A stretch of 64,000 bases of DNA, taken from Patescibacteria group bacterium. Its GTDB lineage: Bacteria; Patescibacteriota; Patescibacteriia; UBA9934. Made by a program: the position numbers and the translations under genes. Positions within the stretch are counted from its first letter, which is position 1; every line of letters starts with the position of its first letter. Of this stretch, positions 3,526-56,395 are shown piece after piece. The DNA is taken from contig JAGORL010000001.1 of the NCBI GenBank assembly GCA_018062825.1, positions 314,758-378,757 on the forward strand. The letters run 5' to 3'. The notes below the pieces were generated by a model. The model did not search any database. It was not told the origin of the DNA and saw only the letters and a list, made by a program, of their open reading frames with translations.

Positions 3526-3712
3526 GACTTCTCCTGAAGGGGCGTCGATATGATCGACAGGGGCATCATCTGCGCAAACGTCGATCACCGACGCTAACGC
3601 AAAAGACCCGCTACGATAGCGGAAATACCCAGAAAAGTCAAGCTATTTCTGGAATACTAGCCCCTGTTTACAAAGCGCATCATCGCAGTCTTGCCATGCC
3701 ACAATGCGATTA

Positions 3713-5681: not shown

Positions 5682-6101
5682 ATGGGTAAGACACTTTCAA
5701 TCATCGAGAGCCTGACGCGCTCCATCGGTTCTGTTGGATCGATCATCGCGCATACGTTCTTCTTCTTTATTGCATTTCTCATTGGCGCACTTGGTGTGAT
5801 TGATTGGGATACCGTCCTTTTAGTGCTAACAACCGCCGTTTCACTGGAAGCGATTTATTTGGCGATCTTTATTCAGATCACCGTGAATCAAAACACTGAA
5901 AGTTTGCGTGAGGTGGAGGTTGACGTTGATGAGATTCAAAAAGATATTGATGCGATCGAGCAGGATGTTGATGAAATTCAGATAGATGAAAAGGAGGAAG
6001 AGGTGCGTGATGCGCGCCAGCAGGAGGCGATTGACGACATCGGTGAGCGCTTACAGCGCCTTGTTGAAGATGTTTCCAAGCTTTCAAAGCGCGTGCAATA
6101 A
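5682..6101 (+). CDS. DUF1003-family membrane protein (two TM helices plus an acidic coiled coil).
   Basis: Hydrophobic segment FFFFIAFLIGALGVIDWDTVLLVLTTAVSLEAIYLAIFI followed by a charged DVDEIQ... repeat region. Confidence 0.5.
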   Translation: MGKTLSIIESLTRSIGSVGSIIAHTFFFFIAFLIGALGVIDWDTVLLVLTTAVSLEAIYLAIFIQITVNQNTESLREVEVDVDEIQKDIDAIEQDVDEIQIDEKEEEVRDARQQEAIDDIGERLQRLVEDVSKLSKRVQ

Positions 6102-13730: not shown

Positions 13731-13779
13731 ATCTTCTTACTTTACTATTCTTTACTATATCGGGTAAAGTACGCTCATT

Positions 13780-22087: not shown

Positions 22088-22120
22088 GAGATCCCTCCCT
22101 CGGCCGTAGCCCGGCCACGG
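22088..22120. repeat. REP-like 33-bp hairpin element, copy 1 (TCCCCTCGGCCGTAGCCCGGCCACGGGCGAGGC).
   Basis: ~10-bp imperfect stem CCTCGGCCGT/ACGGGCGAGG. A near-identical copy is at 36593-36625. Confidence 0.55.
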
Positions 22121-22183
22121 GCGAGGCGGCTGTGCCTCGGGATGACAGATACGGGAGAGTCGTGCATGATATTGATAATAGCT

Positions 22184-24460: not shown

Positions 24461-27400
24461 CTACTGCATGAGTCGACCTGGGCCAAGTGGGTCGTAACCG
24501 TACTTCACCTCAATGCCGTCATCGTAGCCATCACCATCTGTGTCACGTTTCCTAGGATCGGTTTGCATCATGAGCTCTGTTTGATCCCAGAGGCCATCGC
24601 CGTCGGTATCAATCTCGAGCATGAATGGTGCGGTACCTGGGCCAAGTGGATCATAGCCACTGCGCACTTCAAGACCGTCATCATAACCGTCATCGTCACT
24701 GTCAGTACTTGTTGGATCAGTACCCATGAGGCGCTCGATAGCGTCACGCAGGCCATCGCCGTCATAGTCGGCATTGAGAAGCGTTGGGTTGAGTCCAGGA
24801 CCAAGCGGATTGTAGCCATTGAGAAGCTCGATCTGGTCATTGTAACCATCGTCATCTGAGTCTGGGTTAGCAAGATCAAGACCAAGGAATGATTCTTCGT
24901 GATCAGCAACACCGTCTTCGTCGTAGTCGGTGGTGATAACGATGCGCTCAGGGAAGGAAAGATCAACGATCTTGTCACTACCAACCGCAAGGTGAGAATC
25001 ATGCCACAAGATGGTGTCTACCTTTGGCTGGCCCTCGTAGTACACAGCCATACCAATCTGGTGGTGCCACGAGGCTTCCATTGGGCGAACCGAGATGGTA
25101 ACGCTCAAGCAAGCACGTGGATCAACGTCGATCACAACGTCATCGTAGTCAAAGTCTGTTCCTTTGTCTTCAATGCCGTAGATCAGTGTTTCTCGCTCCG
25201 TACGAGTAACCGTAGCGTATTCAGAGAAGGCACTACGCTTGGTACCGTCCGGATTAATAATGTACAGGTCGTAGGTGATTGCCTGGTTGAGTGCTGCTCG
25301 GCGATACATGTGCTGCGCTGCGAGGAAATCCTCGTAGCCAGTGATGTCTGTGCCAAACGTGACGTCAAAGGTGTCTTGCGGGAACAGGGTGATCACATAG
25401 TCATACCACTCATCACCAAAGTTCGCTTCTGCGGCTTCCTCAGTTGCAAGCCAGCGCAGGGTGGCGGTTCCGGTATTGGCGCCATCGTCGGTAATAACGT
25501 AGACGCGCGGGCTTTCCGGGAACTTTACAAGAACCGAGTAAGCGCGAGGGAACATGAGTCCACCTGGAGTAGCTGCTGCAATGATTTCATCAGCAACGTA
25601 GGTGAAGGTACCGCAGCCATCTGAGTAACTTAGATAGGATTGCAAGTCAGGGAATGCGCGCAGCGTGCCGTCTTCTGTAATGAAGTACACAGCACTGTCA
25701 TCTTCGGTTCGTACAAACTGTTCGTTGCCATACTCAGGAATTTCTGGATCGGTAGGCGTCTCTGGGTCAGGAGTCACAGGTGAGGAACAGTCGGTAGTGG
25801 TATCTACCGTAATCGTATCGGTAAGTACCGTAGAGGTTGCGCCACTTGTGCTCTTGAACCGCACATACACCGTGCGGGTGCCGTCACCCGTATCAAGAAG
25901 GGTCCAGGGAACTGTCATGGTGTAAATCTTCTTGCCGTCGGTGCCGGTTGGGGTAGGGGCGTCCTCATCCGCCACGAAGGCTGTCCAAGTTGAGCCTGCA
26001 AATGAACTATCGTTTGAGATCGTCACCTCGCTGGCGTTCGAAGCCTTCAGGGTGAGGGTTGCTAGTGGATCAGGCGTACATGGGTCACCAAGGTCAATGA
26101 TAACCGAGGCGTTACTCGTTTGAACCGGAGAAGGTCCACCTCCGCCACCGCCTCCACCTCCGCCACCGCCTGAAGTGTCGTTATCAATAACGCTCACGGC
26201 CTCGTTGCTGATTGAGATGTCGTCATAATCAAGATCTGCTGAGGCGGCGGAATGGGTAAAGATAGTTGCTTCTGGTGAGCTTTCATCTGTTCCGTCGTCA
26301 ACCGCGGTAACTGTCACGGTTTGTGGCGTATCCCAGTTAAGTGCAGTGAAGACAAGCGACGTGTCATCTGCGGTAGCATCGGCATTCTCGGTGATAGTGA
26401 TGGTAACGTCTGCCGTCGGCTCTGTATCAAGAACAATCGTGTAGGTGTCGGTTGCGCCACCCTCAGTCACTTCTGAGGAAAGAGGGGAGACAGTCACTCC
26501 AGGCGTTGGTCCACCACCGGCGGCAGTGAAGTCGATACGTTCAACGACTGGACCGGCGCTAGTCTGGGTGTTGTTGTAAAGCGTAATGGCAATGTCTAGT
26601 GTATTTGTTGTAACAGCAGAGAAGCCATTAGCATGCGACCACTCGGACTCAGTCAGTCCTTCTACAAAAGCGCTATCCATTGGGCTGTTGCCGCTTTCTA
26701 CAGTGCCAAGTGAAATAGCGGCCTGCATGGTGTTGTCAGGTGAAGCAACCCAGATACCGGCATCATAGTAGTACCAATTACCATCAACGCCACCGTGATC
26801 TGCGGCAAGTCGAGAGGCGATCGTTTGCCAGCCGCCATCATGAACGACGAATGAATCGCGATCATCAAATGAGAAGCTGTAGTATGCGGCATTAACCTCA
26901 GCTGATGTGAAGTCAACGACATCCACCATAGAGATGCCGCTCCATGAGCTTACGTCTTCTTGACCAGCATCAGTGGTGACAACGGTGTAATACCTGGCGT
27001 ATGGGGAGTAATCTTCATCGAAGTGAAAAAGCGTCTCGTAAGTGGAATAGTACATGTCTGCTCCGCTGAATTCCGCAGAAAGAACGCCTGAGAACTGATG
27101 CTCGTCAGTAAGGGTGAGGTCGTCTATCCACTGTTCGCCAAGTCCTCCGGCATTCATTGAGGCGGTAAAGACACGTGTATCGTCACTAATGGCGATATCT
27201 GCAAGTCCGCCACCGATAACGGTATTTCCCGTCCAAAAACTCAGATCAAGCGGATCAATGACAAGTCCGTCAGCTAGTTCATCAAGTTCATTGAATATCA
27301 GTACTGCCTCAAAGATTGGATCGTACTCAATCACGTGTTCGTAGGAGAAGTAAAATGGCAGTTCAATGAGCGATGCTTCCACTGTTCCTCCAATCGGAGC

Positions 27401-30400
27401 AAGAGTGGTGGCGTCAAAACGTGCGATAGCAAAACCATTATTAACAACAACCCAAAACTCATCATTAATCGGCTCGTAAGTAAGGTAGCGAGCCTCCCAT
27501 GATCCCTGAGAAGGGTCATGCCCGCTAATAGTGAAGGCAAGCGACTGCGTATCGTCGATGGATCCATCGACAGGATCAATTAACATGAGTTCATTGGAGA
27601 AATACGTGGTAGCAACCATCTGATCAATATCAGCAAAATAGTAGATGCTATTGATGTCGGAGACAGGGTAGGTAGCAAAGAGTGTGCCAGTGGTGGCATT
27701 GTAAACATCAACTTCATCATACTGCTTGACCCACACACGCTCACGCACGGTATCAATGGCAAAATCAAAGCTTTCACCAAAAAGATCAACCTCAAGATCG
27801 ATAGCGTAGAGCTCGGTGTCTGTATCTGGATCAATGGCACTGAGCGATGCATTTTCAGAGAAGCTATAACCACGAAGTACCCAGAGCACACCGTCATTCG
27901 GGTTCACTTTAATGTCAGCGATCTGTGAACTACCCTCCCCGGCGCCACCTTCAAAAGTAGTATAGCCAGCTACTGTTAGCCCGACATCATCATTGGTAAG
28001 TTCAAGAAGGCCTGTTTCAAGTGACGTACAGAATATCTCCTCGAGAGTGCCGCCTGTATCAGGATATGGAGCCGCTTCACCTGGGTCAGCGCCAACGCTT
28101 GAAGCATCATCGAGCGTGGCATATTGATCGCCATCAATATACTGATGACAAGAGGGAAGGTGCTTTACTTCAGAAGTTACATCCTCATGCGCCCATTCGC
28201 TAGTGCTATCGAAGTCAAAAACAGCAGTCCCGCCATCATTGTCGGCGTTGATCATGAGGAGATCCGCAGGATCAAAGCCATTGTATCGAGTGTCCGCGGA
28301 CGTAGCGGCACCGAGGGTGACGGTGTACTCAATGCCCGCATCGTTGAGGAGGTCATTTTGACCGGTAACAGTGATCGTTTGCGCAACGTTCCAGTTAGCA
28401 GGGGTGAAGGTAAGTGATGACGGGCTCACTGTTCCCTCGGACGTATCTGTAGAGGAAACAGCAATGGTGACGTTGGCGGTTGGCGATCCTGACAGTACAA
28501 CATCAATTTCATGAGTACCTCCAGCCTCTGTTGTAGAGCCAAAATTTTGAATCGGTAAAATAAAACCAGGGTAGTTGAAGATAATCCCAGAAGTATTGCC
28601 ACTGTCGGCGCAGCCAATGTGACACTGAATATCTGTGCCACTTATTTGGTCAATATCTTGGATGTCAGCATGGTGAAGCATGACGGTGCCAAGTGGTTCA
28701 AAGTTTGCGGGCACGCCAGGCGTTGCGGATGCAAATTGAAGCTTCGGTGTAGGCGTATCATTTGCGATGCCCTTGGTTCGAAAATCACCATTCACCGTGA
28801 AGGTATCGCCTGCTGTTATAAGAAGTTCATTATCAGTATTCGTTTCCCAATAAACTTCAAAATCATTTACCTCGATATCGCCAGTGATGACGTGAGAAAC
28901 GGTAGACGGTCCATTAACGTTACGCTTCATGGATATGTAGCCACTCGTGGTATCAAATGTTGCCGAGGCACCCTTGCTCAAACTATCAGAAATAATAATG
29001 AGTCCGTCGCCGGCATCAAAGCTACCATCGGTAATAAGAAGACTACCGCCAATATCGAGCGTTTCACCGGTTCCAGGGCCGTTAGCTGATGCTGAGGCGT
29101 TATTCAGCTGAAGGCCAGGTAAGTAAGCGATGGTGTTGGCGTAGTCGAGCGTAAGCGTTGTTGCTCCGGAGATGCGAATCAAGCCGGTACCTCCAAAGCC
29201 GACTATCTGCCCAATATTTGCATCAAGCACAACGGTATCTCCGGAAACAGCAACAGTTCCGTCGTTAAGCGTTCCTCCATCCATCATGAAGGAATTTTCA
29301 ACGTTGACAGTATCTCCGGTACCGATATTGGTGGCACCAAAGCTTTTATCAATGTGAAAATCGTAGAGATCGATCGAGTTAACAACATCGATGTCAATTT
29401 GATTGTTACCATCAACGACAAGTGAACCGTTGTTGTGCATGAAAGTCGCGTCATCGCTTATGGATAATCCAGAGGTTCCAAACTGCGCAGAGATATACAT
29501 GGTCGCCGATGGCGCAGTGAATGCCGCGTCTCCCGACAATGTGACGTCACCATTGTTGAAATCAAGGTTTCCGGCGCCACCAGTAAAGGTACCGGTAGTC
29601 ATGGTAAGCGGTCCATCAAAAAGAACGGTGCCAGAGGATGGTCCTACTATTTCACGAGTGGAATCTACGATGAGTTCTGGCATTTGACCGTTGCCAACAA
29701 GCGTAATGTCACTCGCGCCATTTGTAACGTGAATCTGACCGCCACCTCCATCAAAAGTACTGGAATGGATGAGGTCGCCAGATGTAACTTCAAGAACAAT
29801 GTTGCAAAGGTTACCGTTCGTAAGGGTGAGCGTACCAAAGATGACCCACGTTGGGCCGTCACCAGATGACAAACAGTCAATGTCGGAATCCCAAGCAACC
29901 GTAATGCTATCGAATGTTGGATCGGGATTGATGAGCGATGTCCCGCCATTGCCATCAAAGATAATCGTGCCAGTATCAGGATCAAAGTTCACGAACTCAT
30001 CAACAGCTGTAATTGATTCTAATGTTAGATTACTTGTAGGTATAGTAAAACCGGCGGTGTCAGTGAGTACTAAGTCATGAATAATGGTGAGATTGCCGGC
30101 GTCACCAATGAATGTGCCGTCACTCATTATAAAATCATTATCAATTTGTACGGTGCCAGAAGACGGACCAAGGATGTTACGGTCAACACTTAAGTTTATA
30201 GTTGGCATGAAGCCACCAGGAACGAGGACAATATCGGTGCTGCCGGCAGTAATAGTAAGAGTGCCGCCATTGCTTTCACCGCCATCAAAGGTGGCAGTAT
30301 GTACAATCTCAGCTTGAGCCTCAATCGTACCGGTGCTGATATTGCCGTTTGTGAGCGTGAGTTCGCCAGTGACAATCAGGGTGTCGCCGCTTGAAACAAT

Positions 30401-31012
30401 AAGAAAAATGTTCGATCCGACCATGGCTAATTCCATGTCGTTAAAAGTCTCCGTAACGTTCACGTTCACGGTGCGATTTGCTGAGCCGTCAAACTCAAAC
30501 TTACCGCTATTATGATTGAATATGCCGCCCGCGGTATGGGTAAAGTTATTATCAATGAAAAATGTGCCCGAAGTTGAGGTAAACGTACCTCCAGCTAAAG
30601 TAAACGTACCATTGAGGTCAATATCTGTAGTGCCTCCAAGGAACGTTCCAGCATCCTGAGCAAAATTTCCACTACCAATAGTAAGTGTTGCACCAAGGCT
30701 ATTGGTAATAGTGCCCGAATACCCAGAGTTGATATCAATACCCTGAATGCTACCGGTAAAAGTAGCATCAATGGTGGCATCTTTTGAGGAAGTGCCATCA
30801 AAGGTAGCGACATCGCCAGCGCCTGGCTCGGTATCGCTGCTCCAGTTTGCGTCCTCGCTCCAGTTGTTGGTAGCGCCGCCACCATCCCAGGTGCGAACTG
30901 CGGCAAAAGCCCCAGTTGGAGCAAGGAGTACAAGGCCAAAGACAGCACCGAGCCCAGCGAGAATTGCGAGGCGAAGGGTGGGTAAAAGGCGGGGGGAGAA
31001 AGATGACATCAT
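24461..31012 (-). CDS. Giant secreted cell-surface repeat protein (2183 aa): N-terminal signal peptide, beta-helix-like Gly/Thr-rich repeats, two Calx-beta-like domains, a Gly12 run, and C-terminal thrombospondin type-3 calcium-binding repeats.
   Basis: Signal peptide ...LLAPTGAFAA. Calx-beta-like segments end ...INADNDGG and ...VIDNDTSGGGGGGGGGGGG. TSP3-like repeats include DSDDDGYNDQIELLNGYNPLGPG, DSDDDGYDDGLEV and DTDGDGYDDGIEV. AAGAGG RBS. Confidence 0.7.
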   Translation of the reverse strand: MMSSFSPRLLPTLRLAILAGLGAVFGLVLLAPTGAFAAVRTWDGGGATNNWSEDANWSSDTEPGAGDVATFDGTSSKDATIDATFTGSIQGIDINSGYSGTITNSLGATLTIGSGNFAQDAGTFLGGTTDIDLNGTFTLAGGTFTSTSGTFFIDNNFTHTAGGIFNHNSGKFEFDGSANRTVNVNVTETFNDMELAMVGSNIFLIVSSGDTLIVTGELTLTNGNISTGTIEAQAEIVHTATFDGGESNGGTLTITAGSTDIVLVPGGFMPTINLSVDRNILGPSSGTVQIDNDFIMSDGTFIGDAGNLTIIHDLVLTDTAGFTIPTSNLTLESITAVDEFVNFDPDTGTIIFDGNGGTSLINPDPTFDSITVAWDSDIDCLSSGDGPTWVIFGTLTLTNGNLCNIVLEVTSGDLIHSSTFDGGGGQIHVTNGASDITLVGNGQMPELIVDSTREIVGPSSGTVLFDGPLTMTTGTFTGGAGNLDFNNGDVTLSGDAAFTAPSATMYISAQFGTSGLSISDDATFMHNNGSLVVDGNNQIDIDVVNSIDLYDFHIDKSFGATNIGTGDTVNVENSFMMDGGTLNDGTVAVSGDTVVLDANIGQIVGFGGTGLIRISGATTLTLDYANTIAYLPGLQLNNASASANGPGTGETLDIGGSLLITDGSFDAGDGLIIISDSLSKGASATFDTTSGYISMKRNVNGPSTVSHVITGDIEVNDFEVYWETNTDNELLITAGDTFTVNGDFRTKGIANDTPTPKLQFASATPGVPANFEPLGTVMLHHADIQDIDQISGTDIQCHIGCADSGNTSGIIFNYPGFILPIQNFGSTTEAGGTHEIDVVLSGSPTANVTIAVSSTDTSEGTVSPSSLTFTPANWNVAQTITVTGQNDLLNDAGIEYTVTLGAATSADTRYNGFDPADLLMINADNDGGTAVFDFDSTSEWAHEDVTSEVKHLPSCHQYIDGDQYATLDDASSVGADPGEAAPYPDTGGTLEEIFCTSLETGLLELTNDDVGLTVAGYTTFEGGAGEGSSQIADIKVNPNDGVLWVLRGYSFSENASLSAIDPDTDTELYAIDLEVDLFGESFDFAIDTVRERVWVKQYDEVDVYNATTGTLFATYPVSDINSIYYFADIDQMVATTYFSNELMLIDPVDGSIDDTQSLAFTISGHDPSQGSWEARYLTYEPINDEFWVVVNNGFAIARFDATTLAPIGGTVEASLIELPFYFSYEHVIEYDPIFEAVLIFNELDELADGLVIDPLDLSFWTGNTVIGGGLADIAISDDTRVFTASMNAGGLGEQWIDDLTLTDEHQFSGVLSAEFSGADMYYSTYETLFHFDEDYSPYARYYTVVTTDAGQEDVSSWSGISMVDVVDFTSAEVNAAYYSFSFDDRDSFVVHDGGWQTIASRLAADHGGVDGNWYYYDAGIWVASPDNTMQAAISLGTVESGNSPMDSAFVEGLTESEWSHANGFSAVTTNTLDIAITLYNNTQTSAGPVVERIDFTAAGGGPTPGVTVSPLSSEVTEGGATDTYTIVLDTEPTADVTITITENADATADDTSLVFTALNWDTPQTVTVTAVDDGTDESSPEATIFTHSAASADLDYDDISISNEAVSVIDNDTSGGGGGGGGGGGGPSPVQTSNASVIIDLGDPCTPDPLATLTLKASNASEVTISNDSSFAGSTWTAFVADEDAPTPTGTDGKKIYTMTVPWTLLDTGDGTRTVYVRFKSTSGATSTVLTDTITVDTTTDCSSPVTPDPETPTDPEIPEYGNEQFVRTEDDSAVYFITEDGTLRAFPDLQSYLSYSDGCGTFTYVADEIIAAATPGGLMFPRAYSVLVKFPESPRVYVITDDGANTGTATLRWLATEEAAEANFGDEWYDYVITLFPQDTFDVTFGTDITGYEDFLAAQHMYRRAALNQAITYDLYIINPDGTKRSAFSEYATVTRTERETLIYGIEDKGTDFDYDDVVIDVDPRACLSVTISVRPMEASWHHQIGMAVYYEGQPKVDTILWHDSHLAVGSDKIVDLSFPERIVITTDYDEDGVADHEESFLGLDLANPDSDDDGYNDQIELLNGYNPLGPGLNPTLLNADYDGDGLRDAIERLMGTDPTSTDSDDDGYDDGLEVRSGYDPLGPGTAPFMLEIDTDGDGLWDQTELMMQTDPRKRDTDGDGYDDGIEVKYGYDPLGPGRLMQ

Positions 31013-35397: not shown

Positions 35398-36135
35398 TCA
35401 GCTCCTCGTGATGTGTAGCAGTCGTTGGCGCTCATGGAGTGGAAACTTCTCAATCGCGTAACGAACGGTGGTGCGAGGGAGTTGTGTCCCGTGTTTTTCA
35501 AGGAAGCTTTTGAGTCGTGGCATATCTCTTTTGCCAGCCTCACGCAGCATCCAGCCCACTGCTTTATGCGTTAAATCGCGCTTGTCGTTATGTACGTCGA
35601 GCGCGATTTCGTATATCTCATCCAAATGTCCGGCTTTAATGAACGCATACGTTGCGATGATTCCAATGCGGCGTAAGAAAAGCGGCTCACGATGCGCAAG
35701 AGCATTGGCTTCATAGCGACGATTTTGCAGAAGTAACCAGTCGCCAACAATTTTGTGCGCCGACACGTCAACTAAATCCCAGTTATTCAAACCAGGAAGC
35801 GTGACATACACATCAACGATTCGACGCCGCACATTTTCGTCCTTCGATTTTGCATACAAACGAACAAGGGCAATGGCCGCAAAAAGACGCGCTTCATGCC
35901 ATGGGGAAGTGAAGATCTCAAGAATCTCTTCCAAACTCAAAACAGGAAACTCTTTAAGAAGCGATCGAGTTTCTGGAACCGTTACGCCAAAAAAGCGATC
36001 ACCTTCGCCATACTGACCCTTGCCGGTCTTAAAGAACCGCGTCGCTTGCTCAGCCTTGATGGGGCTCCCAAGTGAAGCTAAGCGTTTTTCAACTGCGAGC
36101 CGTGTTGTTTTAGGAATATTGTTCATATATGTCAT
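35398..36135 (-). CDS. DNA alkylation repair protein (AlkD/AlkC-like HEAT-repeat glycosylase family).
   Basis: DNA_alkylation-family pattern (...FFKTGKGQYGEGDRFFGVTVPETR...WDLVD...). Start taken at MTYMN or MNNIP to avoid overlap with msrB. Confidence 0.6.
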   Translation of the reverse strand: MTYMNNIPKTTRLAVEKRLASLGSPIKAEQATRFFKTGKGQYGEGDRFFGVTVPETRSLLKEFPVLSLEEILEIFTSPWHEARLFAAIALVRLYAKSKDENVRRRIVDVYVTLPGLNNWDLVDVSAHKIVGDWLLLQNRRYEANALAHREPLFLRRIGIIATYAFIKAGHLDEIYEIALDVHNDKRDLTHKAVGWMLREAGKRDMPRLKSFLEKHGTQLPRTTVRYAIEKFPLHERQRLLHITRS

Positions 36136-36167
36136 CCCGAGACAGAGCCAGGGGTCCCTTACTTGCA

Positions 36168-36585: not shown

Positions 36586-36592
36586 CTCCCCT

Positions 36593-36625
36593 CGGCCGTA
36601 GCCCAGCCACGGGCGAGGCCTACTT
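36593..36625. repeat. REP-like 33-bp hairpin element, copy 2.
   Basis: TCCCCTCGGCCGTAGCCCAGCCACGGGCGAGGC, 1 mismatch from copy 1 at 22088-22120. Confidence 0.55.
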
Positions 36626-37418: not shown

Positions 37419-37462
37419 AAAAGAGCACGGACTTTTGGTCGCGTGCTCTTTCTTTAACACTT
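37419..37462. terminator. Bidirectional terminator AAGAGCACG-(12 nt)-CGTGCTCTT with T-rich tails on both strands.
   Basis: Lies between the convergent genes ccdA (+) and 37488-39047 (-). Followed by a TCTTTAACACTTTTTACTTTAAT tail. Confidence 0.65.
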
Positions 37463-37487
37463 TTTACTTTAATACCTTCACCTCAAA

Positions 37488-47951: not shown

Positions 47952-47983
47952 TAGCACTAAAATGAGCGAAGAAAGAAGTAAAA

Positions 47984-48017
47984 CAGCCTTGACCCGAGGC
48001 TGTTTTTATGTTAGCAT
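47984..48017 (+). promoter_or_regulatory. pepA terminator (CAGCC-ttgacccga-GGCTG followed by TTTTT) whose loop and tail double as a sigma70-like promoter (TTGACC, 17-nt spacer, TAGCAT) for gene 48096.
   Basis: Direct reading. The -35 hexamer sits in the hairpin loop. Confidence 0.45.
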
Positions 48018-48095: not shown

Positions 48096-48938
48096 ATGAG
48101 CGTAAAGATGACGATCAACGTGAATGAAATCCTGGCTCAGCTCGGCGATGTTCAGAGCCTCGTCGCCACTCTCGCCAAGCAGGGACTGCCCGACGAGTTC
48201 TACGAACGGGTGCAGAACGACTCCCAGTTCCGGAAGAAGTTCATCACCTGGGCGCAGAAGCAGCTCAACTCCACCGGCCGTCTCGTTGCTCCCGACCCAG
48301 ACCACAATCCGTTCATGCTGAGCGTCGAGGAACAGATCTCTCGTCTGCGGCGCGCGAATGACGAGGAGGGCTGGGGAATCTCGGAGAAGATCCTCCAGAG
48401 CCTAGAGAAGAGCGCTCCGGAGTGGCCAAAGGGTCGCCTCGCGTTCCGCAGCTTCCGGATTCGCTTCGGGGAGGGGGTTGAGGGCATTACCCTGACGTTC
48501 AACTTGCACGTCAAACACATCGGATCAGTCTTCAAGAATGTGAATGTCCGAGGAGGGGAGCTCATCTCGAAGGGAGGGTGGATTTACTTGATATCCGGTA
48601 GCCACACGCATCAGCCGGTCATCGAGTGGGTCACCTTCGATCTTCTTGCTCACCGCACGCATGAACGCATCAAGGACGTGCAGGGACTGGAGTCGCTGGC
48701 GGACGAACTTCTCGTCTTCGTGTGGCTGTTTCTGGAATACATCGAGAAGATCGATTACGAGGAGAATCCTGCTCTGTTCGGGGCAGGTTACGACTTCTAC
48801 CATCATCATGTTACACCGTACATCGATTGGAAACGCGGTACTCGTGGGCGCCCCGGTACCCTGAGGATCGATATGAAGAACAGTGCGCGCAGGCTCAGTC
48901 GCTGGTGGCGCTACTCGATTCCTGCTCTTAGGAGCTAG
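48096..48938 (+). CDS. Hypothetical protein, paralog A of a two-member family (280 aa), in a GC-rich islet.
   Basis: Shares the blocks DPDhNPF, APEWPKGRLAFRSFRIRFGEG, HQPVIEWVTFDL, ADELLVFVWLF and FGAGYD with gene 55027-55761. Has its own terminator. Confidence 0.55.
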   Translation: MSVKMTINVNEILAQLGDVQSLVATLAKQGLPDEFYERVQNDSQFRKKFITWAQKQLNSTGRLVAPDPDHNPFMLSVEEQISRLRRANDEEGWGISEKILQSLEKSAPEWPKGRLAFRSFRIRFGEGVEGITLTFNLHVKHIGSVFKNVNVRGGELISKGGWIYLISGSHTHQPVIEWVTFDLLAHRTHERIKDVQGLESLADELLVFVWLFLEYIEKIDYEENPALFGAGYDFYHHHVTPYIDWKRGTRGRPGTLRIDMKNSARRLSRWWRYSIPALRS

Positions 48939-48955
48939 TCCAAGAAGCGCACGCT

Positions 48956-48994
48956 CACAGCCTCTGACTTCGGTCGGGGGCTGTTTCTTTTGGG
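48956..48994 (+). terminator. Intrinsic terminator CAGCCTCTGAC-ttcg-GTCGGGGGCTG followed by TTTCTTTTGGG.
   Basis: Near-identical to the terminator at 55815-55853, with a compensatory G:C to A:T stem change. Confidence 0.75.
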
Positions 48995-49091
48995 AAGAGT
49001 ATTGAGATAATGGGTGGTAGAGTGTAAAAGAAAAACATACGCCTGAAGCCACTTTAATCTTTTATCTTTACTCTTTAACCTTTAACCTCCT

Positions 49092-49388
49092 ATGCCCAAA
49101 CTCGTCCGCGACAATATCCCCGATATCATTACCGCTAAAGGCGAGCACTTTGTGTCGCACGTTGCTGACGACGCTGAGTATTGGCAGAGATTGAAAGAGA
49201 AGCTTGCAGAAGAAGTGGGGGAGTTTCAGAAAGATGAGAATGAAAGCGAGCTGGCTGATATTTTAGAAGTGATCGACGCCATTGTGGCGTATAAGAAATT
49301 CGATCAGGCCTCGATCGCGGTAGTCAAAGCGAAGAAGTTCGCTGAGCGTGGGGGATTTGCAAAGCGGATTGTGCTTGATGAGCACTAG
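49092..49388 (+). CDS. MazG-like / HisE-like all-alpha nucleotide pyrophosphohydrolase.
   Basis: KLVRDNIPDII...EYW..LKEKLAEEVGEF...ELADILEVIDAI matches the small NTP-PPase family. Confidence 0.55.
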   Translation: MPKLVRDNIPDIITAKGEHFVSHVADDAEYWQRLKEKLAEEVGEFQKDENESELADILEVIDAIVAYKKFDQASIAVVKAKKFAERGGFAKRIVLDEH

Positions 49389-49429
49389 TCAGTGGGGAGT
49401 AGAAAGTCGGCAGTAGTATGAGTGATAAC

Positions 49430-49475
49430 CAAAAAGAGCACCGGCTCAACGCCGCGTGCTCTTTCTTTAAAACTT
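49430..49475. terminator. Bidirectional terminator AAGAGCAC-(14 nt)-GTGCTCTT flanked by A- and T-tracts.
   Basis: Lies between convergent genes. Followed by a TCTTTAAAACTTTTAACTTTAAT tail. Confidence 0.65.
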
Positions 49476-49502
49476 TTAACTTTAATACTTTAACCTCCCA
49501 CT

Positions 49503-50027
49503 CTACGCCTTCCCAAGCGTGCTCTCACCTGGCTCCCACTCCATTGGGCAGAGTTCGCCGCTTTGAAGCGCCTTGATCACACGAACCACTTCCTTCACTG
49601 ATCGACCAACCGAGCCTGAGGAAACAACGCTATAACGAACGTTGCTGTCTGGATCGATGATGAACAAGCCGCGCTCAGCCAAGCCTTCATCCTCATTCAA
49701 AACCCCGTACGCACGGCTAACGCGGTGTGTGGTATCCGCAAGGACTGGATAGGTAACGTCAGCAAGATCACGTTCAAACCATGCCTTGTGACTCCACTCG
49801 GAATCCGTAGAAGCCGAGAGAACCTTTACTCCAAGATCATGCAATTCTGCCTCATGCTTGGCAAAGCCCTTGAGCTCTGTTGGACAAACAAAGGTAAAGT
49901 CACGTGGATAAAAGAAAAACACTAACCAGCTGCCCTTATAGTCGCTAAGACTTACTTTTACGAAGTCGCCCTTATGGTACGCAACAACATTAGAAAAATC
50001 TGGAGCAGGTTTACCGATAATAACCAT
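49503..50027 (-). CDS. Typical 2-Cys peroxiredoxin (AhpC/TSA family).
   Basis: Peroxidatic Cys in FTFVCPTE. Resolving Cys in GELCPMEWEPG (matching the EVCPAGW motif). Start at MVIIGKPAPDF. Confidence 0.85.
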   Translation of the reverse strand: MVIIGKPAPDFSNVVAYHKGDFVKVSLSDYKGSWLVFFFYPRDFTFVCPTELKGFAKHEAELHDLGVKVLSASTDSEWSHKAWFERDLADVTYPVLADTTHRVSRAYGVLNEDEGLAERGLFIIDPDSNVRYSVVSSGSVGRSVKEVVRVIKALQSGELCPMEWEPGESTLGKA

Positions 50028-50129
50028 AGACAAGCAATAAAGAATTTGCCTGAACATAGTAACAAGCGGTGACTAAGTCGCAAGGTAGGCTGTTGACCAA
50101 GGTCGGTAAAAAACGTACTTTACGTTCGT

Positions 50130-51293
50130 ATGAAAAAAGCGCTCACCTACGCCATTCCCGTTATTTCCGCAGTTGTCGTCTTTGGGGCGATCATGATTAT
50201 TCGTAACAATCAGATGGATAAAGCCATGGGCGGTTTATGGCCAACGCTTGATGGGGGAGTGTACGAGCAAGCCGTAAAGGTCGGAAAGTTGCAGTACCTT
50301 GTTCCGCCAAATGAGGTTGTGGATGGTGGTGTACAGGCAGAGGATCTTCCAGCGCTCAATGAGCCAACGTTTGGTTCAATCGCGGCTGAGGATGAAAAGC
50401 TCGCTGATGACGTTAGCGGTATTGTTGTCACTTCCGGTTCAGAGGCGCGATTCTACTCCTTCCAAATTCTCAACTGGCATTACGCAGTGAATGATGTGAT
50501 CGGTGGCAAGAATGTTGCCGTAACGTATTCGCCACTTTCTGGTTCCGTAGCAGTTTATGATCGTGGCGACATGCAGCTTCAGGCATCAGCCAAGCTCTAC
50601 AACAACATCATGTTGTTAACAGACGGTTCAGATAGTTTGTGGAATCAATTGAACGGTCAGCGCGTTGTTGGTGAATCTGTTGGTGAGGTTTTGGTAAGCC
50701 AACCGTTTGCTGTCATGACCTGGGCAAGCTTTAAGGCCGCATACCCACAAGGTCAAGCGCTTTCAACTGAAACCGGTCATGTACGCGCGTACGGCATTCA
50801 TCCATACGGAAGTTACGATAATGCATCATCAGTCTATTTCCCATTAAACCACTTGGACTCCAGTCAGCCACTGAAGGCGATCATGCACGCGGTAGCAAAT
50901 GGCGGCACCACGGTTCTCGTGCCAGACGTCCAGGTCTTTGCAAATAACGCGCTCAACCTTGAAGTCGGCGATCTGCCGGTCATGGGTCGCTTCATGGATG
51001 GCGATGCCGTACGTTTCTTTGATCGTCGTGTTGAAGGCGTAACCTTAACGTTTAGCGTCTCCTCAGGTGGCGTTGTAACGGATGACCAAACCGGTTCGGT
51101 TTGGAACGGTGAAGGTGAGGCAGTCAGTGGCGAGTATCGTGGCGTGCGCTTAACGCAAGTTGTTAGCATGCGCTCATTCGCCTTTGCCGCTTTGGCCATG
51201 TATCCTCAAGCAGAAGTTATCGGTGCCGTGACAGGTGAGGCGGCTGCGGAGGCTGACGTCCCAGCTGAACCAATTGAAATCAATGTCGAATAA
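50130..51293 (+). CDS. DUF3179-family protein with an N-terminal membrane anchor.
   Basis: TM anchor followed by NDVIGGKNVAVTYSPLSGSVAVYDR, which resembles the DUF3179 core. Assignment tentative. Confidence 0.4.
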   Translation: MKKALTYAIPVISAVVVFGAIMIIRNNQMDKAMGGLWPTLDGGVYEQAVKVGKLQYLVPPNEVVDGGVQAEDLPALNEPTFGSIAAEDEKLADDVSGIVVTSGSEARFYSFQILNWHYAVNDVIGGKNVAVTYSPLSGSVAVYDRGDMQLQASAKLYNNIMLLTDGSDSLWNQLNGQRVVGESVGEVLVSQPFAVMTWASFKAAYPQGQALSTETGHVRAYGIHPYGSYDNASSVYFPLNHLDSSQPLKAIMHAVANGGTTVLVPDVQVFANNALNLEVGDLPVMGRFMDGDAVRFFDRRVEGVTLTFSVSSGGVVTDDQTGSVWNGEGEAVSGEYRGVRLTQVVSMRSFAFAALAMYPQAEVIGAVTGEAAAEADVPAEPIEINVE

Positions 51294-51960
51294 CGCCGGA
51301 TCACTTTTTATTGTCGCAACCCCGATTGGCAACCTCGGTGATATTTCGTTTCGCGCAAAAGAGGTGCTCGGGAGTGTTGATCAGGTGTTGTGTGAGGATA
51401 CGCGCGTAACCGCTCGCCTCATGGCAGCGCTTGAAATTCGCCCTTCACTACAATCGTTCCACGAACACACTGATCCCATGAAGCGCCGCGCGCTTGTAGA
51501 GATGATCCTAGAAGGAAAGTCGCTCGCGCTCGTAACCGATGCTGGTACACCAGCTATTTCAGACCCCGGCGGCGCCCTTGTTGCTGATTGCGTGAAGGCC
51601 GGGATCAAGGTTCTGCCAATCCCTGGCGCTTCCGCCGTCATCGCGGCACTGTCTGTCAGCGGCTTCATGTTTGATCGGTTTACCTTTGTTGGCTTTCCAC
51701 CACACAAGAAAGGCCGAGAAACCTTCTTCCGTGAGCTCGAGCGTCTGGATCACGTGATTGTCTTGTACGAATCCACGCACCGTATTGAAAAAACGCTCAC
51801 CTCACTTGCTGCGCTCAATCGTCCACTGGTTGTTTGTCGTGAACTTACTAAGTTGCACGAAACAATCTATCGCGGTTCAGCACAAGAAATCATGCAGCAA
51901 TTGAGTCAGACAAGTAGTAAAGGAGAGTTTGTGATCGTCGTCGGTAATGCAATAGCATAA
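51283..51960 (+). CDS. rsmI: 16S rRNA (cytidine1402-2'-O)-methyltransferase RsmI.
   Basis: Tetrapyrrole-methylase fold: LFIVATPIGNLGDISFRA...CEDTR. Start overlaps the previous stop (ATGTCGAATAA). Confidence 0.85.
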   Translation: MSNNAGSLFIVATPIGNLGDISFRAKEVLGSVDQVLCEDTRVTARLMAALEIRPSLQSFHEHTDPMKRRALVEMILEGKSLALVTDAGTPAISDPGGALVADCVKAGIKVLPIPGASAVIAALSVSGFMFDRFTFVGFPPHKKGRETFFRELERLDHVIVLYESTHRIEKTLTSLAALNRPLVVCRELTKLHETIYRGSAQEIMQQLSQTSSKGEFVIVVGNAIA

Positions 51961-52005
51961 CGTCTTTAACACTTTTCACTTTAATACTTTAATCTCACCC
52001 CTCCT

Positions 52006-53460
52006 GTGCCAACCCGCTACATAACCGCCTCAATTCCGTACGTAAACGCCGTGCCGCACATCGGTCACGCGCTTGAGTTCGTGCAAGTTGATTTCTTGTT
52101 GCGCTACTACCGCGCACAAGGCGAGAATGTTCGCGGTCAGTTTGGTAGCGACGACAACTCGCTCAAGAACGTGCGAGCCGCTCAGGCAGCGGGGGAGGAG
52201 ACTGAGGCGTACGTAGCTCGTCACTCGCAGGTTTTCAAAGAGCTGCAAGAGCTTCTCGGTTTGTCATTTGATGATTTTATTCGTACCCGTGAGGATCGCC
52301 ACATGCGTGGCGCGCAAAAGTTGTGGTCACTCATGAAGCCTGAGGACGTCTACAAGAAGTCATACCAAGGTTTGTATTGCGTGGGTTGTGAGGCTTTTTA
52401 TAATGAAGCCGATCTTGTTGAGGGTTTGTGTCCAGTGCACAAGAAGGCGCTTGAAACCGTTACTGAGGAAAACTATTTCTTCCGTTTGTCGAGTTATCAA
52501 AAACAACTTGAAGAACTTGTTGCATCAGACAAAATCAAAGTCTGGCCAGAGAATCGCAAGAATGAAATGCTTGCTTTTATTCGTCGTGGCTTAGAAGATT
52601 TCAGCATCTCTCGTTCGGTTGAACGCGCGGAGCACTGGGGCGTGCCAGTACCAAACGATCCATCACAAGTTATGTACGTTTGGGTTGATGCCTTGTCCAA
52701 CTACATCAACGCTCTTGGGTTTGCTGACGACGATAAAGCGTACGATACCTTCTGGAAGAATGCGGATGTCCGTACACATGTGCTTGGTAAAGACATTTCG
52801 CGCTTTCATGTTATTTACTGGCCAGCTTTCTTGCTCTCCGCCGGTCAGCCACTCCCAACAGAAATCTTTGTGCACGGCTTTTTGACCGTTGATGGTCAGA
52901 AGATGAGTAAGTCACTTGGGAACGTTATTGCTCCAGCTGATCTTGTTGCTGACTTTGGCGTGGAGGCTGTGCGCTACGCACTGCTTCGCGAGCTTCCACT
53001 AAGTAACGATGGCGATATTGGTAAGGCGCGTATGGAAGAGCGTTACGCTGAGCTTGCTAATAACCTCGGGAACCTCGTGGGTCGCGTGGCTGCCATGGCA
53101 AACAAGTACTTTGAAGGTGCGGTAGACGATATTGCTTTTCATGATGCTGACGCATTGACCGCTAAGCTCAAAGAGGCCGTGGCTCGCTACGACTTCCGAA
53201 CGTACATAGAGCTTGTCTGGTCAGTCGTTGATGCCGCCAACCATAAGATTGATGTTGAAGCGCCATTTAAGACCGCCAAAACTGATCTCGCTGCGTGCAA
53301 AAAGACCTTGTCAGAACTTGCTGGCATGATTCGCTTCATTGCGGAGGCGCTCAAGCCGGTCATTCCAAACGCTGCCGCTGAAATCAGTAAACGGTATACT
53401 GGAGAAAAACTCACCCACGGCGAGCCACTTTTCCCTCGCCGCGATCAAGAAAAAGTCTAG
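52006..53460 (+). CDS. metG: Methionine--tRNA ligase (short form without the C-terminal tRNA-binding extension).
   Basis: HIGH motif (PHIGHAL), zinc knuckle (CVGCEAF...CPVH) and KMSKS. GTG start. Confidence 0.9.
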   Translation: MPTRYITASIPYVNAVPHIGHALEFVQVDFLLRYYRAQGENVRGQFGSDDNSLKNVRAAQAAGEETEAYVARHSQVFKELQELLGLSFDDFIRTREDRHMRGAQKLWSLMKPEDVYKKSYQGLYCVGCEAFYNEADLVEGLCPVHKKALETVTEENYFFRLSSYQKQLEELVASDKIKVWPENRKNEMLAFIRRGLEDFSISRSVERAEHWGVPVPNDPSQVMYVWVDALSNYINALGFADDDKAYDTFWKNADVRTHVLGKDISRFHVIYWPAFLLSAGQPLPTEIFVHGFLTVDGQKMSKSLGNVIAPADLVADFGVEAVRYALLRELPLSNDGDIGKARMEERYAELANNLGNLVGRVAAMANKYFEGAVDDIAFHDADALTAKLKEAVARYDFRTYIELVWSVVDAANHKIDVEAPFKTAKTDLAACKKTLSELAGMIRFIAEALKPVIPNAAAEISKRYTGEKLTHGEPLFPRRDQEKV

Positions 53461-53463
53461 CCT

Positions 53464-53955
53464 ATGTTCGCACTCCAGCCTTGGCATATTGATCTCATCA
53501 TTGGCTTCATCGGCCTTGTGTTTGTGATTTTAGGCATGCGGGCTGGTGGTGTGCGGGCGATCGGGAGTCTAATCAGTCTCATTGTCAGTATTCTTGTTGG
53601 AATATTTGGCATCATGGCGCTTGAGGAGTGGACGGGCATGGATCTGACAAGTAACCCGATCATCCTCGTGCTCGTCTTTGTGCTGCTCTCGGTTATCACA
53701 AGTAAGCTCGCGCAACTCATAATCAACGCAATGGATTTGGTGCGCCGCGCCATGTCTATCATTCCTTTTGTAAACTTAGCGAACAGTCTGGCAGGTGGCG
53801 TTGTCGGTATCTTTAAAACACTGCTACTCATTGCGTTGATCGCCTACGTCTCCGTTTACTGGCTGCCAGCAACTGCGGAATACCGCAAGGCAATCCTGCA
53901 GTCACAGACCATCTCCTTTGGCGTCGATTCACTCGACGGCATCAAGGTTTTCTAA
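53464..53955 (+). CDS. cvpA: CvpA-family membrane protein.
   Basis: Four-TM small protein of the CvpA (colicin V production) type. Confidence 0.6.
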   Translation: MFALQPWHIDLIIGFIGLVFVILGMRAGGVRAIGSLISLIVSILVGIFGIMALEEWTGMDLTSNPIILVLVFVLLSVITSKLAQLIINAMDLVRRAMSIIPFVNLANSLAGGVVGIFKTLLLIALIAYVSVYWLPATAEYRKAILQSQTISFGVDSLDGIKVF

Positions 53956-53958
53956 ACT

Positions 53959-54828
53959 ATGTTCGAACTGATTGATACGCATTGTCACGTCCATTTTCAA
54001 GCCTACAAAGAAGATATGGACGCGGTTGTTGAGCGCGCACTAAAAAGTAGCGTTGGCATGATTACGGTTGGCACGCAATCAACCACAAGCGCTAACGGTA
54101 TTAAGCTTGCGGAGCGTTATGATGGCGTGTGGGCCGCCGTTGGTCTGCACCCCAATCATTTGCATGCGCAAGAATTTGAAGATGAGAATGAGTTGCCACC
54201 GGGCGTTACGGCCGATCAACATGATTCGGTAAAAGTAAAAACTCGTGCCGAGCGCTTTGATCCGGAGTATTACCGACCACTTGTGGTGCATCCTAAGGTG
54301 GTAGCAGTGGGGGAGTTTGGTTTGGATTACTACCGCTTGCCACCAAACGTGGACATTGAAACCTTGAAGGCTGATCAGATGGAATCGGTGCGCACGCAGC
54401 TCACCTTTGCAAGCGATGCTGGCAAACCGGTTGTGATTCATTGCCGAGATGCGCACGCTGATCAGGCTCGTTTACTAAGAGAAGAGATCGATCGTGGTGG
54501 CTTAAAGCGCCGCGGCGTCGTGCACTGTTTCACCGGCACTGATGCCGAGGCCTCTGCCTACCGTGATATCGGCTTTTACGTTTCCTTCACCGGCATCGTG
54601 GCTTTTGGCAAGAACGTCATGGAAGCCGCCAAAAACGTCCCGCTGGAACAGATGTTGATTGAAACCGATTCCCCATACCTCACCCCGCCTCCACACCGGG
54701 GCAAGCGCAATGAACCAAGCTATGTTCGTTTCGTTGCCGAAAAGATCGCTGAAATAAAAGGCATACCTGTTGCTAAGGTTGCAGAAGTGACCACGGAAAA
54801 TGCTGTCAGATTGTTTGGGTTGGCGTAG
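53959..54828 (+). CDS. tatD: TatD-family metal-dependent hydrolase (DNase).
   Basis: N-terminal IDTHCHV. Conserved His and Glu residues. C-terminal IETDSPYL. Confidence 0.85.
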   Translation: MFELIDTHCHVHFQAYKEDMDAVVERALKSSVGMITVGTQSTTSANGIKLAERYDGVWAAVGLHPNHLHAQEFEDENELPPGVTADQHDSVKVKTRAERFDPEYYRPLVVHPKVVAVGEFGLDYYRLPPNVDIETLKADQMESVRTQLTFASDAGKPVVIHCRDAHADQARLLREEIDRGGLKRRGVVHCFTGTDAEASAYRDIGFYVSFTGIVAFGKNVMEAAKNVPLEQMLIETDSPYLTPPPHRGKRNEPSYVRFVAEKIAEIKGIPVAKVAEVTTENAVRLFGLA

Positions 54829-55026
54829 TAAATAATGGCTAATATTACAAAAGATCCGTTGACAAAACGGCAATTTTATGATACTTTTACACGTCGTACT
54901 TTATAAACGGTGATGTGTTAAAAGTGGCATTTTGAGGCTCAAAGGTGGGCTTTAAGACGCCGCTTTTAACAGTTGGTGTGCTTGTAACGGGAATAGACCC
55001 GCATCAAGTTCACTAGCGGCACCAAA

Positions 55027-55761
55027 TTGGGTATGCCCATGGCAAACCTCATTGATGCACGGGTCGAGCAAGATGTTGAGACCACGAGTCTCAGCACCTC
55101 TGACCCCGACAAGAATCCTTTCGAACAGTCGGTGACTGAGCAGATCGTGTCGCTCATTCGGGCGATCGACAAAGGAGGATGGGATATCTCGATCGAAGAC
55201 ATTGAGCGCCTCATCAAGACCGCTCCCGCGTGGCCGAAGGGTCGCCTCGCGTTTCGTTCGCTTCGTATCCGTTTCGGACATGGTGAGATGGGAGTCGCCC
55301 AAACCTTCGATCGACACGTTAAAATGATCAAGAAAGTCTTTCATGAGGGGCTCACGTATCTTGATGTTCTTCCAACGGTTAAGGCGCCGCACTATAGAGA
55401 CCTTACAAGACGCCTGCGTCTGTCGGTGGGTAATCAAACGCACAAGCCCACGATTGAGTGGATCTTGGTCGACATTGGGGCGAATCAAGAGCGGGAAGAG
55501 CTCACGGATGCTCATTTCATGCAAGGGCTTGCTGATGAACTACTTGTCTTTACGTGGATGTTTCCAAGCTACCTCAGGCGGATTACCCTCAACGACCTCG
55601 AGTACCCGATGCTGGTCGCTGCTGGTTACGAGAATTATGTCGATAATGAGCCTGACCCTTGGGTTGGGACGGTGCTTATCGACTATTCGGACAAAGTCAT
55701 ACTGTTCGACGACTTGATTGGTGGCTCGGAGATGTCGATACCGGTTGAAATCACGCAGTAA
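55027..55761 (+). CDS. Hypothetical protein, paralog B (244 aa), in a GC-rich islet.
   Basis: See paralog A at 48096-48938. Has its own conserved terminator. Confidence 0.55.
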   Translation: MGMPMANLIDARVEQDVETTSLSTSDPDKNPFEQSVTEQIVSLIRAIDKGGWDISIEDIERLIKTAPAWPKGRLAFRSLRIRFGHGEMGVAQTFDRHVKMIKKVFHEGLTYLDVLPTVKAPHYRDLTRRLRLSVGNQTHKPTIEWILVDIGANQEREELTDAHFMQGLADELLVFTWMFPSYLRRITLNDLEYPMLVAAGYENYVDNEPDPWVGTVLIDYSDKVILFDDLIGGSEMSIPVEITQ

Positions 55762-55814
55762 TCAAGTTGTGCTCGAGAACTCTTGAGACTAGCTATTCGT
55801 TTCTCGTGTCACGC

Positions 55815-55853
55815 CTCACAACCTCCGACTTCGGTCGGGGGTTGTTTCTTTTG
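55815..55853 (+). terminator. Intrinsic terminator CAACCTCCGAC-ttcg-GTCGGGGGTTG followed by TTTCTTTTGGG.
   Basis: Paralogous to 48956-48994. Confidence 0.75.
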
Positions 55854-55979
55854 GGAAAAAGATTAAAGATTAAAGTGGAAAGATGAAAGGGATGAAAGAA
55901 GCGTAAGGTAAGGTCTACTATTTCGATAAGCGCCTTTACTTTCACTCTGAAAGACGTTACGATTAGTTGTCGTTTCGCA

Positions 55980-56330
55980 TAGGGTGAACGACGCGTAAAC
56001 CCGCCCGTGTTTGTTACGGAGTCAGAAGTGCCTTCCTCGGATAAGCCCACCCATACCGCGCCCCCGCGCAGCTTCACGCCACTCGTGCCGCCGCCCAATC
56101 ACCTCGGTCCTCGTACCGAGCTCGGAGCGCCACTGCGCTTGAGTGGCGACACGCTCGTTCCGCCCGGAACGCGCTGCATCCCGCTCGCTGCCCTTGCTGA
56201 GGATCTGAACCTCGGGGGCGACATCACGTTCGTTCATCTGAGGGCGCGCCGCGACAGGTAGTTCGTACCGCGCCTCACAGTGTTTCTTTCGTACCCCCGC
56301 TAGCGCAAGCCGGCGGGGGATTTCTTTACT
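55980..56330 (+). other. GC-rich ~350-bp terminator-bounded segment of unknown nature: either a structured ncRNA or a degraded/small GC-rich gene (ORF 56007-56261 encodes a Pro-rich 84-aa product).
   Basis: ~66% GC. Nested hairpins (GAGCG-CCACT...AGTGG-CG..CGCTC; GTTCC-gccc-GGAAC). Ends with the terminator CCCCCGC-(12 nt)-GCGGGGG followed by ATTTCTTT at 56283-56325. Confidence 0.3.
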
Positions 56331-56395
56331 CCCACCTCGGCCTGCCCCCTTTCCGCCCTTCCGCCATTCCCACTTTCCGCCTACAATTCACCCAT

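Follow-up and report, generated by a model that had tools for sequence, protein, structure and literature searches.

Introduction

Known variable proteins of diversity-generating retroelements (DGRs) include Mtd of Bordetella phage, TvpA of Treponema, TaqVP of Thermus and the nanoarchaeal AvpA, and all solved examples have the C-type lectin fold. Closest to the genes considered here are the targets of a Patescibacteria DGR clade, which lack recognisable domains (“clade 2” of Roux et al., 2021; PMC8144416). DGRs that act on remote targets are also known and are missed by contig-based surveys (PMC8144416). In the Bordetella phage DGR, target recognition depends on a hairpin that is needed by its structure and not by its sequence, with a GC-rich stem of 7–10 bp and a 4-nt GRNA loop, located 4–34 bp past the variable repeat (VR) (Guo et al., 2011; PMC3240598). 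Here we describe a pair of paralogous genes and the hairpins that follow them in a 64,000-nt stretch of a Patescibacteria group bacterium genome (GenBank assembly GCA_018062825.1, contig JAGORL010000001.1, positions 314,758 to 378,757; hereafter the window). Judged by sequence, both genes very probably belong to a DGR variable-protein family of Patescibacteria.

Results

The paralogous pair

The pair consists of two open reading frames (ORFs) on the plus strand, paralog 1 at 48096–48938 (280 amino acids; NCBI KBC55_01950, MBP9827895.1, from the ATG at 48108, 276 amino acids) and paralog 2 at 55027–55761 (244 amino acids from the TTG at 55027; NCBI KBC55_01990, MBP9827903.1, from the ATG at 55039, 240 amino acids). 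A second NCBI record of paralog 2 holds only a 193-residue version; the long ORF is the right one because homology to the family begins upstream of the 193-residue start. BLASTP aligns the two proteins with 82 identities in 186 residues (44%, E = 3e-47). All sequence blocks on which a first-pass annotation of this DNA had based the paralogy fall within this alignment, and the similarity is not a matter of low-complexity regions. The conserved core of paralog 1 (48294–48791, plus strand, approximately residues 67–232, placed by alignment A1 and by AlphaFold2 confidence) follows the consensus NPF...WPKGR.AFRS.RIRFGEG...TH.P..EW...LADELLV..W...GY. The predicted local distance difference test (pLDDT) is 90–98 along most of this stretch, and the family-invariant residues P111, R121, R123, G130, T134 and H138 are all kept. 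Paralog 1 is a 100% match to P0001.

The two copies diverged long ago. Nucleotide identity in the core is 54%, and third codon positions are 40% identical and saturated, which makes a dN/dS comparison of the two copies meaningless. Each paralog is at least as near to members from other genomes (45–49%) as to its partner (44%), the best non-self family matches of paralog 2 being at 49%. In a simple neighbor-joining tree with long branches, the two form deep, long and separate branches that are not sisters.

A protein family targeted by DGRs

Neither protein has a match in Pfam, NCBIfam, PHROGs or PADLOC, and a family profile gave zero matches to PDB sequences at E ≤ 10. The family is not a well-characterized enzyme, and the first-pass description of it as unrecognized holds for these databases but not beyond them, since it can be placed as a DGR variable (target) protein from 13 loci. 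This link was invisible to the earlier reader because no reverse transcriptase (RT) or template repeat (TR) lies within the window. The homologs form 73 clusters at 90% identity, are 220–290 amino acids long, carry no Pfam domain, and come nearly all from metagenome-assembled genomes (MAGs) of Patescibacteria or Uhrbacteria; an exhaustive profile search yielded 314 family representatives at 50% identity. Several contigs that carry the family (L007, L009, L012 and others) are titled “uncultured Gammaproteobacteria”, Lentisphaerae, Ignavibacteriae, Bacteroidetes or Myxococcales, and these titles are probably placeholder labels or reflect mis-binned contigs.

The connection to DGRs is seen directly in the homolog P0008 from an Uhrbacteria contig. 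Downstream of the gene come bAvd, encoded on the opposite strand, and a reverse transcriptase of the RVT_1 type, and a 136-nt copy of its 3´ end is found between P0008 and the RT parts, with 15/15 mismatches located at adenines of the copy. Because this gene-end copy differs at adenines only and sits beside Avd and RT, the locus is a DGR. Locus L001 has the order target, TR, Avd and RVT_1, and in a scan of GTDB representative genomes, which gave 48 family loci, 13 shared the order target, TR, Avd (minus strand) and RT. The TR matches the last ~135 nt of the family gene. In these 13 loci the TR/VR pairs are 131–147 nt long and 85–93% identical, with 9/9 to 20/20 mismatches at TR adenines (including 15/15, 16/16, 18/18 and 20/20); two of the DGR-linked loci have a few mismatches elsewhere than at adenines. 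Where at least 2.5 kb of sequence follows the gene (38 loci), a full cassette is present in 11 cases, RT fragments or a different DGR in 4, and nothing within 10 kb in 23.

The window paralogs show full-length homology to DGR-linked members such as L007, L008 and L010 (E from 1e-35 to 1e-70). A distant member of the superfamily, L055 (27% identity; hhalign 99.7%), is a DGR target as well, with the same layout and 21/22 mismatches at A, and carries the family hairpin described below at 57 bits. Since the distant L055 is also DGR-linked, the link is probably ancestral to the superfamily.

The family thus resembles known DGR targets in its C-terminal VR of ~135 nt with a cognate TR, in adenine-only mismatches, in the neighboring Avd and RT, and in having a hairpin after the VR; it resembles those of the candidate phyla radiation in lacking a recognizable conserved domain. 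A difference from known DGR targets is that Avd is encoded on the opposite strand, with the TR placed after the target gene and before the 3´ end of avd.

Two side observations concern the same loci. A second, different type of DGR occurs in the same genomes as the family (L021, 4933–7438; L040, 1006–2368); it has a 211-residue target ending in ...GRWL...RWNRDSGFAFAVSQ, a TR at ~5915–6010 followed by Avd and a 45%-identical RT, and it does not target the family gene 3–8 kb away. Upstream of the DGR-linked copy at L011 lies what is left of another family gene, a truncated 3´ end (140–333) that carries a separate hairpin of the family type (56 bits), which indicates that family members can occur in tandem.

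Predicted fold

An AlphaFold model of the DGR-linked homolog P0008 has a mean pLDDT of 88, rising to 97–98 from residue 70, and the VR (pLDDT 94–98) is modeled as a beta-hairpin plus a terminal strand. Unlike the solved DGR variable proteins, this model lacks a Foldseek counterpart: the best hits were at E = 1.6 in PDB and E = 0.32 in BFVD, and the comparison, which included C-type lectin folds, did not reveal such a fold in the VR-bearing domain. Pfam families of the C-type lectin type (FGE-sulfatase, DUF1566) had no match in 70 members at E ≤ 1. A comparison through the target of the second DGR type (L021) was unusable, that protein having no Pfam or PDB anchor. One might go further and regard the whole family, both window genes included, as a DGR scaffold other than the C-type lectin that comes with a conserved RNA or DNA element at the target site, a long hairpin with an invariant CUUGG...CCUUGG internal loop, the window copies being domesticated, frozen variants shorn of cassette and hairpin; we put this forward tentatively and with more doubt than belief.

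State of the two window copies

Within the window, tblastn with the RT and Avd of L001 as queries found nothing below E = 1, and blastn at word size 7 with both gene tails found no TR for either gene. The tails equivalent to the VR are at 48792–48935 in paralog 1 (C-terminal ~48 amino acids, homologous to the family VR by position) and at 55633–55758 in paralog 2 (C-terminal ~42 amino acids), both on the plus strand and both degenerate. They have no DNA similarity to the 13 known family TRs, to any family VR or to each other, and since the tails are dissimilar in DNA, one TR could not serve both genes. The tail of paralog 1 has indels relative to the family and a pLDDT of only 39–55, and retains the near-invariant W245 and P276; the W and P residues of the VR scaffold are kept in both window tails. 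Family-wide, 33/48 genes keep TR-like tails, whereas 13/48 have neither a TR-like tail nor the family hairpin, a state that the two window genes share. The window copies thus differ from DGR targets in lacking a nearby TR, Avd and RT as well as a TR-like tail.

Orphans of this kind are common in the family. A COX00 Uhrbacteria genome carries an orphan pair in a similar neighborhood, next to AhpC, and a DGR elsewhere; the TR of this DGR fits the target beside it (21/22 mismatches at A) and neither orphan. A further MAG has remote paralogs whose fit to the resident TR is only imperfect, 9/17 and 16/30 of the mismatches being at A. We take it as the better-supported view, though far from a settled one, that both window copies are fossil targets whose sequence has become frozen. 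The MAG and two independent run assemblies agree fully in protein and DNA sequence, which is weak evidence as assemblies give a consensus. No KBC55-tagged RT was present among the best 120 of more than 6,600 homologs of the family-linked RT, a result that is uninformative.

The absence of hallmarks could also mean that the genes descend from lineages that were never targeted, the tail being an ordinary, fast-evolving one and the DGR having captured a crown group only. In favor of this, the DGR-rich crown excludes both genes and most other hallmark-less members, which are found on deep, long branches, and neither gene retains a trace of TR-like DNA. However, the still more distant L055 is DGR-linked and has the family hairpin at 57 bits, members without hallmarks occur inside DGR-rich clades as well (L027, L037, L041 and L043), and the window tails keep the scaffold W and P, which together make an origin outside DGR targeting rather unlikely.

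Downstream of paralog 2, a GC-rich gap of 535 bp (55860–56395) without a convincing gene or Rfam match separates it from a gene for a UvrD/PD-(D/E)XK helicase. It holds a hairpin at ~56296–56325 followed by a T-run, and both Logan assemblies break inside or just past it. The gap was considered as a relic of a DGR cassette and rejected, as nothing in it resembles an RT, Avd, a TR or the family and Pfam matches none of its ORFs.

A covarying hairpin downstream of family genes

A long hairpin stands 5–30 nt past the stop codon of most family genes and of almost all that are linked to a DGR. Its outer stem has up to 16 bp and encloses a UU/UU internal loop, an inner GG..CC stem and a 4-nt loop. 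Among 21 aligned copies, CUUGG...CCUUGG is invariant, 92.5% of cells pair compared with 74.7% in shuffles, and 14/20 pairs show double changes; slid controls collapse. A covariance model of this CUUGG hairpin (R1) has 28 matches in 791 kb, all on the coding strand and directly 3´ of family genes. The hairpin goes with the TR-like tail (counts 21/12/2/13, the last being the genes with neither; Fisher p = 0.0016).

By analogy with the Bordetella phage element, the CUUGG hairpin is a good candidate for a target-recognition hairpin. The two share a GC-rich inverted repeat with a 4-nt loop soon after the gene end, and in both the structure counts, the pairing of the family hairpin being kept by covariation while its sequence varies. 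The family hairpin differs in being longer (16-bp outer stem, UU/UU loop and inner GG..CC) and in having UUCG, UUCU or CUUG loops, not GRNA. Beyond the CUUGG hairpin, a second small conserved hairpin, GGCGC-GAA-GCGCC, is found ~60–90 nt past the stop codon in one subgroup (L001, L010, L013, L034, L035 and L038), and a GCCGYRUCUACAAC...GUAGAURCGGC terminator takes its place in another (L011, L014, L018, L021, L026 and L003).

The predicted terminators of the window pair

The hairpins that follow the window genes are of another kind. Hairpin 1 (48957–48984, with its tail to 48994) reads ACAGCCTCTGAC TTCG GTCGGGGGCTGT with the tail TTCTTTTGGG, and hairpin 2 (55818–55845, with its tail to 55855) reads ACAACCTCCGAC TTCG GTCGGGGGTTGT with the same tail, both on the plus strand. 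Each has a perfect 12-bp stem with 7 G-C pairs, a UUCG loop of 4 nt and the tail TTCTTTTGG, the U-rich tail common to both being UUCUUUUGGG. Predicted energies are -22.8 and -21.5 kcal/mol (z-scores -3.1 and -3.6) for hairpins 1 and 2, respectively, and a terminator scan ranked them as the two best sites of the region. They share with intrinsic terminators the GC-rich stem, the UUCG tetraloop, the U-rich tail and the location on the coding strand 3´ of the stop codon, and are predicted to be ordinary strong Rho-independent terminators. R1 gave no match to either hairpin (E > 10, filters off), and the CUUGG...CCUUGG motif is absent from both. A resemblance by eye to the hairpins of L044 and L026 (AGCCU...UUCG...GGCU) was considered as a sign of homology to the family hairpin and dropped, since R1 rejects it. 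Exact-pattern scans of JGI metagenomes returned 0 matches to the hairpin sequence, and Rfam over 47.9–56.5 kb, at the gathering threshold and at E ≤ 1, found only a distant tRNA.

The terminators were correctly described by the first-pass annotation as near-identical: they have in common a block of 50 nt with 88% identity (93% over 43 nt), and a 15-nt core has exact copies at hairpins 1 and 2 only within the window. The hairpins differ at stem positions 4, 9 and 25, through one G:C to A:U double change, which had been noted before, and one U.G to C:G change, and all three differences preserve pairing. The further claim that this is direct evidence for selection on the RNA hairpin is too strong. 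The neutral probability that all 12 pairs survive three stem substitutions is 0.017–0.073 (0.010–0.023 if a double change is included), such that the compensatory change is suggestive of selection. The same pair-preserving pattern would be expected from templated correction inside a palindrome or from a role played by the DNA itself. Moreover, selection on structure alone does not explain the 93% identity, because the selected hairpin of the family changed its stem freely over a comparable depth.

The same annotation had given each gene its own promoter, which we could not corroborate: a single weak sigma-70-like match (9/12; TTGACC-17-TAGCAT at 47989–48017, plus strand) precedes paralog 1 and overlaps the pepA terminator at 47980–48006, none was found upstream of paralog 2, and such sites are no more numerous in the region than in shuffled sequence.

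A homing role for the hairpins would follow if one or both genes were live remote targets of a DGR elsewhere in the genome, the hairpins serving as recognition hairpin or cruciform. Several points speak for this: the family is a DGR target family at 13 loci, action on remote targets has precedent (PMC8144416), homing needs a GC-rich hairpin with a 4-nt loop 4–34 bp past the VR and depends on its stem structure, not its sequence (PMC3240598), hairpin 1 begins 18 nt past the stop codon, and the hairpins (93%) are far better conserved than the genes (54% nucleotide identity). We nevertheless consider it improbable. The dissimilar tails mean that one TR cannot feed both genes, the hairpins fail R1 and lack CUUGG...CCUUGG, the loop is UUCG and not GRNA, hairpin 2 is 56 nt past the stop codon, the three assemblies show no variation, and similar hairpin families follow unrelated genes too.

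Repeated modules in intergenic DNA

The last point emerges from a survey of repeats in the window. A CTTTAAT-type tract with a period of 7 follows each copy, at 49049–49085 (also delimited as 49052–49085; plus strand; upstream of the next gene, at 49092) and, inverted, at 55858–55899 (minus strand; directly 3´ of hairpin 2). The opposite orientations reported by the earlier reader are borne out by a 21-nt match between the tracts, CCACTTTAATCTTTWATCTTT, where 0 are expected by chance. At least 8 copies of this tract are present in the intergenic DNA of the window (at 32024, 34536, 37451, 46370, 49049, 49463, 51963 and, on the minus strand, 55858). Pyrimidine-rich sequences with a period of 7–8 nt are also seen at 56351–56381 (four units of TTCCGCCA) and 13740–13758. 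Tracts of this kind often directly precede a start codon, as with the genes that begin at 49092, 52006 and 56396, and may be a leader or translation-initiation feature of the organism.

The window contains no fewer than three further families of short repeats, and two of these are terminator hairpins. The first is a near-identical pair on the minus strand (2413–2442 and 3200–3227; GATCGACATCCCG CGCC CGGGGTGTCGATC; 36 nt at 97%) that follows the adjacent ORFs 2450–3067 and 3244–3588, the products of which are 30% identical over 47 amino acids and have no Pfam match. The second is a 66-nt module of hairpin plus CTTTAA (37419–37484 and 49432–49497; AAAAGAGCAC...GUGCUCUUU) found after unrelated genes, with a related hairpin of the same family at 1882–1909 (minus strand); the inner stems of this family differ in a pair-preserving manner (GGAC/GUC vs CGGC/GCCG). 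The remaining repeats are a direct pair of 31 nt at 97% (22097–22127 and 36589–36619) and, adjoining it, an inverted pair of 24 nt (22128–22151 and 36126–36149). The window also contains a very large ORF on the minus strand (24461–31012, 2183 amino acids).

As near-identical hairpin families also follow unrelated genes, terminator similarity is not special to the paralog pair, and the CTTTAAT tract is a genome-wide intergenic motif. The window hairpins are thus unlike usual intrinsic terminators in that near-identical copies exist and that the terminator hairpins of this genome come in families joined to CTTTAAT tracts. Repetitive extragenic palindromic (REP) sequences and bacterial interspersed mosaic elements (BIMEs) are dispersed palindromic repeats, short and hairpin-forming, with several copies after genes. 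The window families are similar in being hairpin repeats after genes, some copies of which differ by pair-preserving changes, and dissimilar in having 2–3 copies per family in 64 kb; no transposase was seen in the window, in which no search aimed at transposases was made. Because short intergenic repeat families are common in the window, the look-alike terminators most probably arose when a small terminator module was recently copied or converted, with pair-preserving drift thereafter. The view of the first-pass annotation, that both terminators go back to the gene duplication and were kept almost unchanged by purifying selection on the RNA terminator, is in keeping with the three pair-preserving differences, with the strong-terminator form and with the occurrence of both copies 3´ of the paralogs and nowhere else in the window, but has little chance of being right given that the paralogs are as distant from each other as from homologs of other orders with third positions at a saturated 40%, that the selected family hairpin varied freely at the same depth (14/20 pairs with double changes), and that near-identical hairpin families follow unrelated genes.

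Discussion

Taken together, the two genes are best explained, with a confidence somewhat better than even, as ancient, non-sister paralogs of a DGR variable-protein family that have become fossil targets, their terminators being kept alike by a habit of the genome. In many relatives, RT and Avd would copy the TR into the final ~135 nt of the gene, erring at adenines, and in this way rewrite the surface of the C-terminal beta-hairpin, which presumably binds a ligand. In the window region, neither copy shows any DGR hallmark, loss being the likelier reason, and both most likely act as binding proteins of fixed specificity. Each copy would form its own transcription unit closed by a strong Rho-independent terminator. 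The near-identity of the two terminators would then result from the genome keeping or spreading its terminator hairpins as sequence families. Either conversion of short tracts or the copying of a small module made of a hairpin and a CTTTAAT tract could bring this about, after which only pair-preserving changes would survive.

Several points weigh against this explanation. The search covered the 64-kb window out of a contig of 406 kb (406,338 bp), and a DGR with its own TR elsewhere could serve one of the genes. The preference for loss over a DGR never having been acquired follows from parsimony, one distant DGR-linked outgroup and a simple neighbor-joining tree with long branches. A binding function is suggested by analogy with DGR targets in general, and no ligand, signal peptide or partner was found for these proteins. 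Finally, the hairpin family sits exactly 3´ of both paralogs, which is unlikely at random, and a gene-linked cause is possible.

In conclusion, two “hypothetical proteins” and several hundred homologs from Patescibacteria can now be labeled as a DGR variable-protein family, with the window pair as orphan members. In this genome, terminator hairpins and CTTTAAT leader tracts are repeated modules, and because they recur in this way, similar terminators should not be taken for gene-specific signals here. For the biology of DGRs, the family offers a compact and well-conserved target with a predicted fold that is not recognizably that of a C-type lectin, and a downstream hairpin with strong covariation, the presence of which goes with TR-like tails. 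Roughly one member in four lacks both hallmarks, and these would provide a natural series for the study of how hypervariable genes become fixed.

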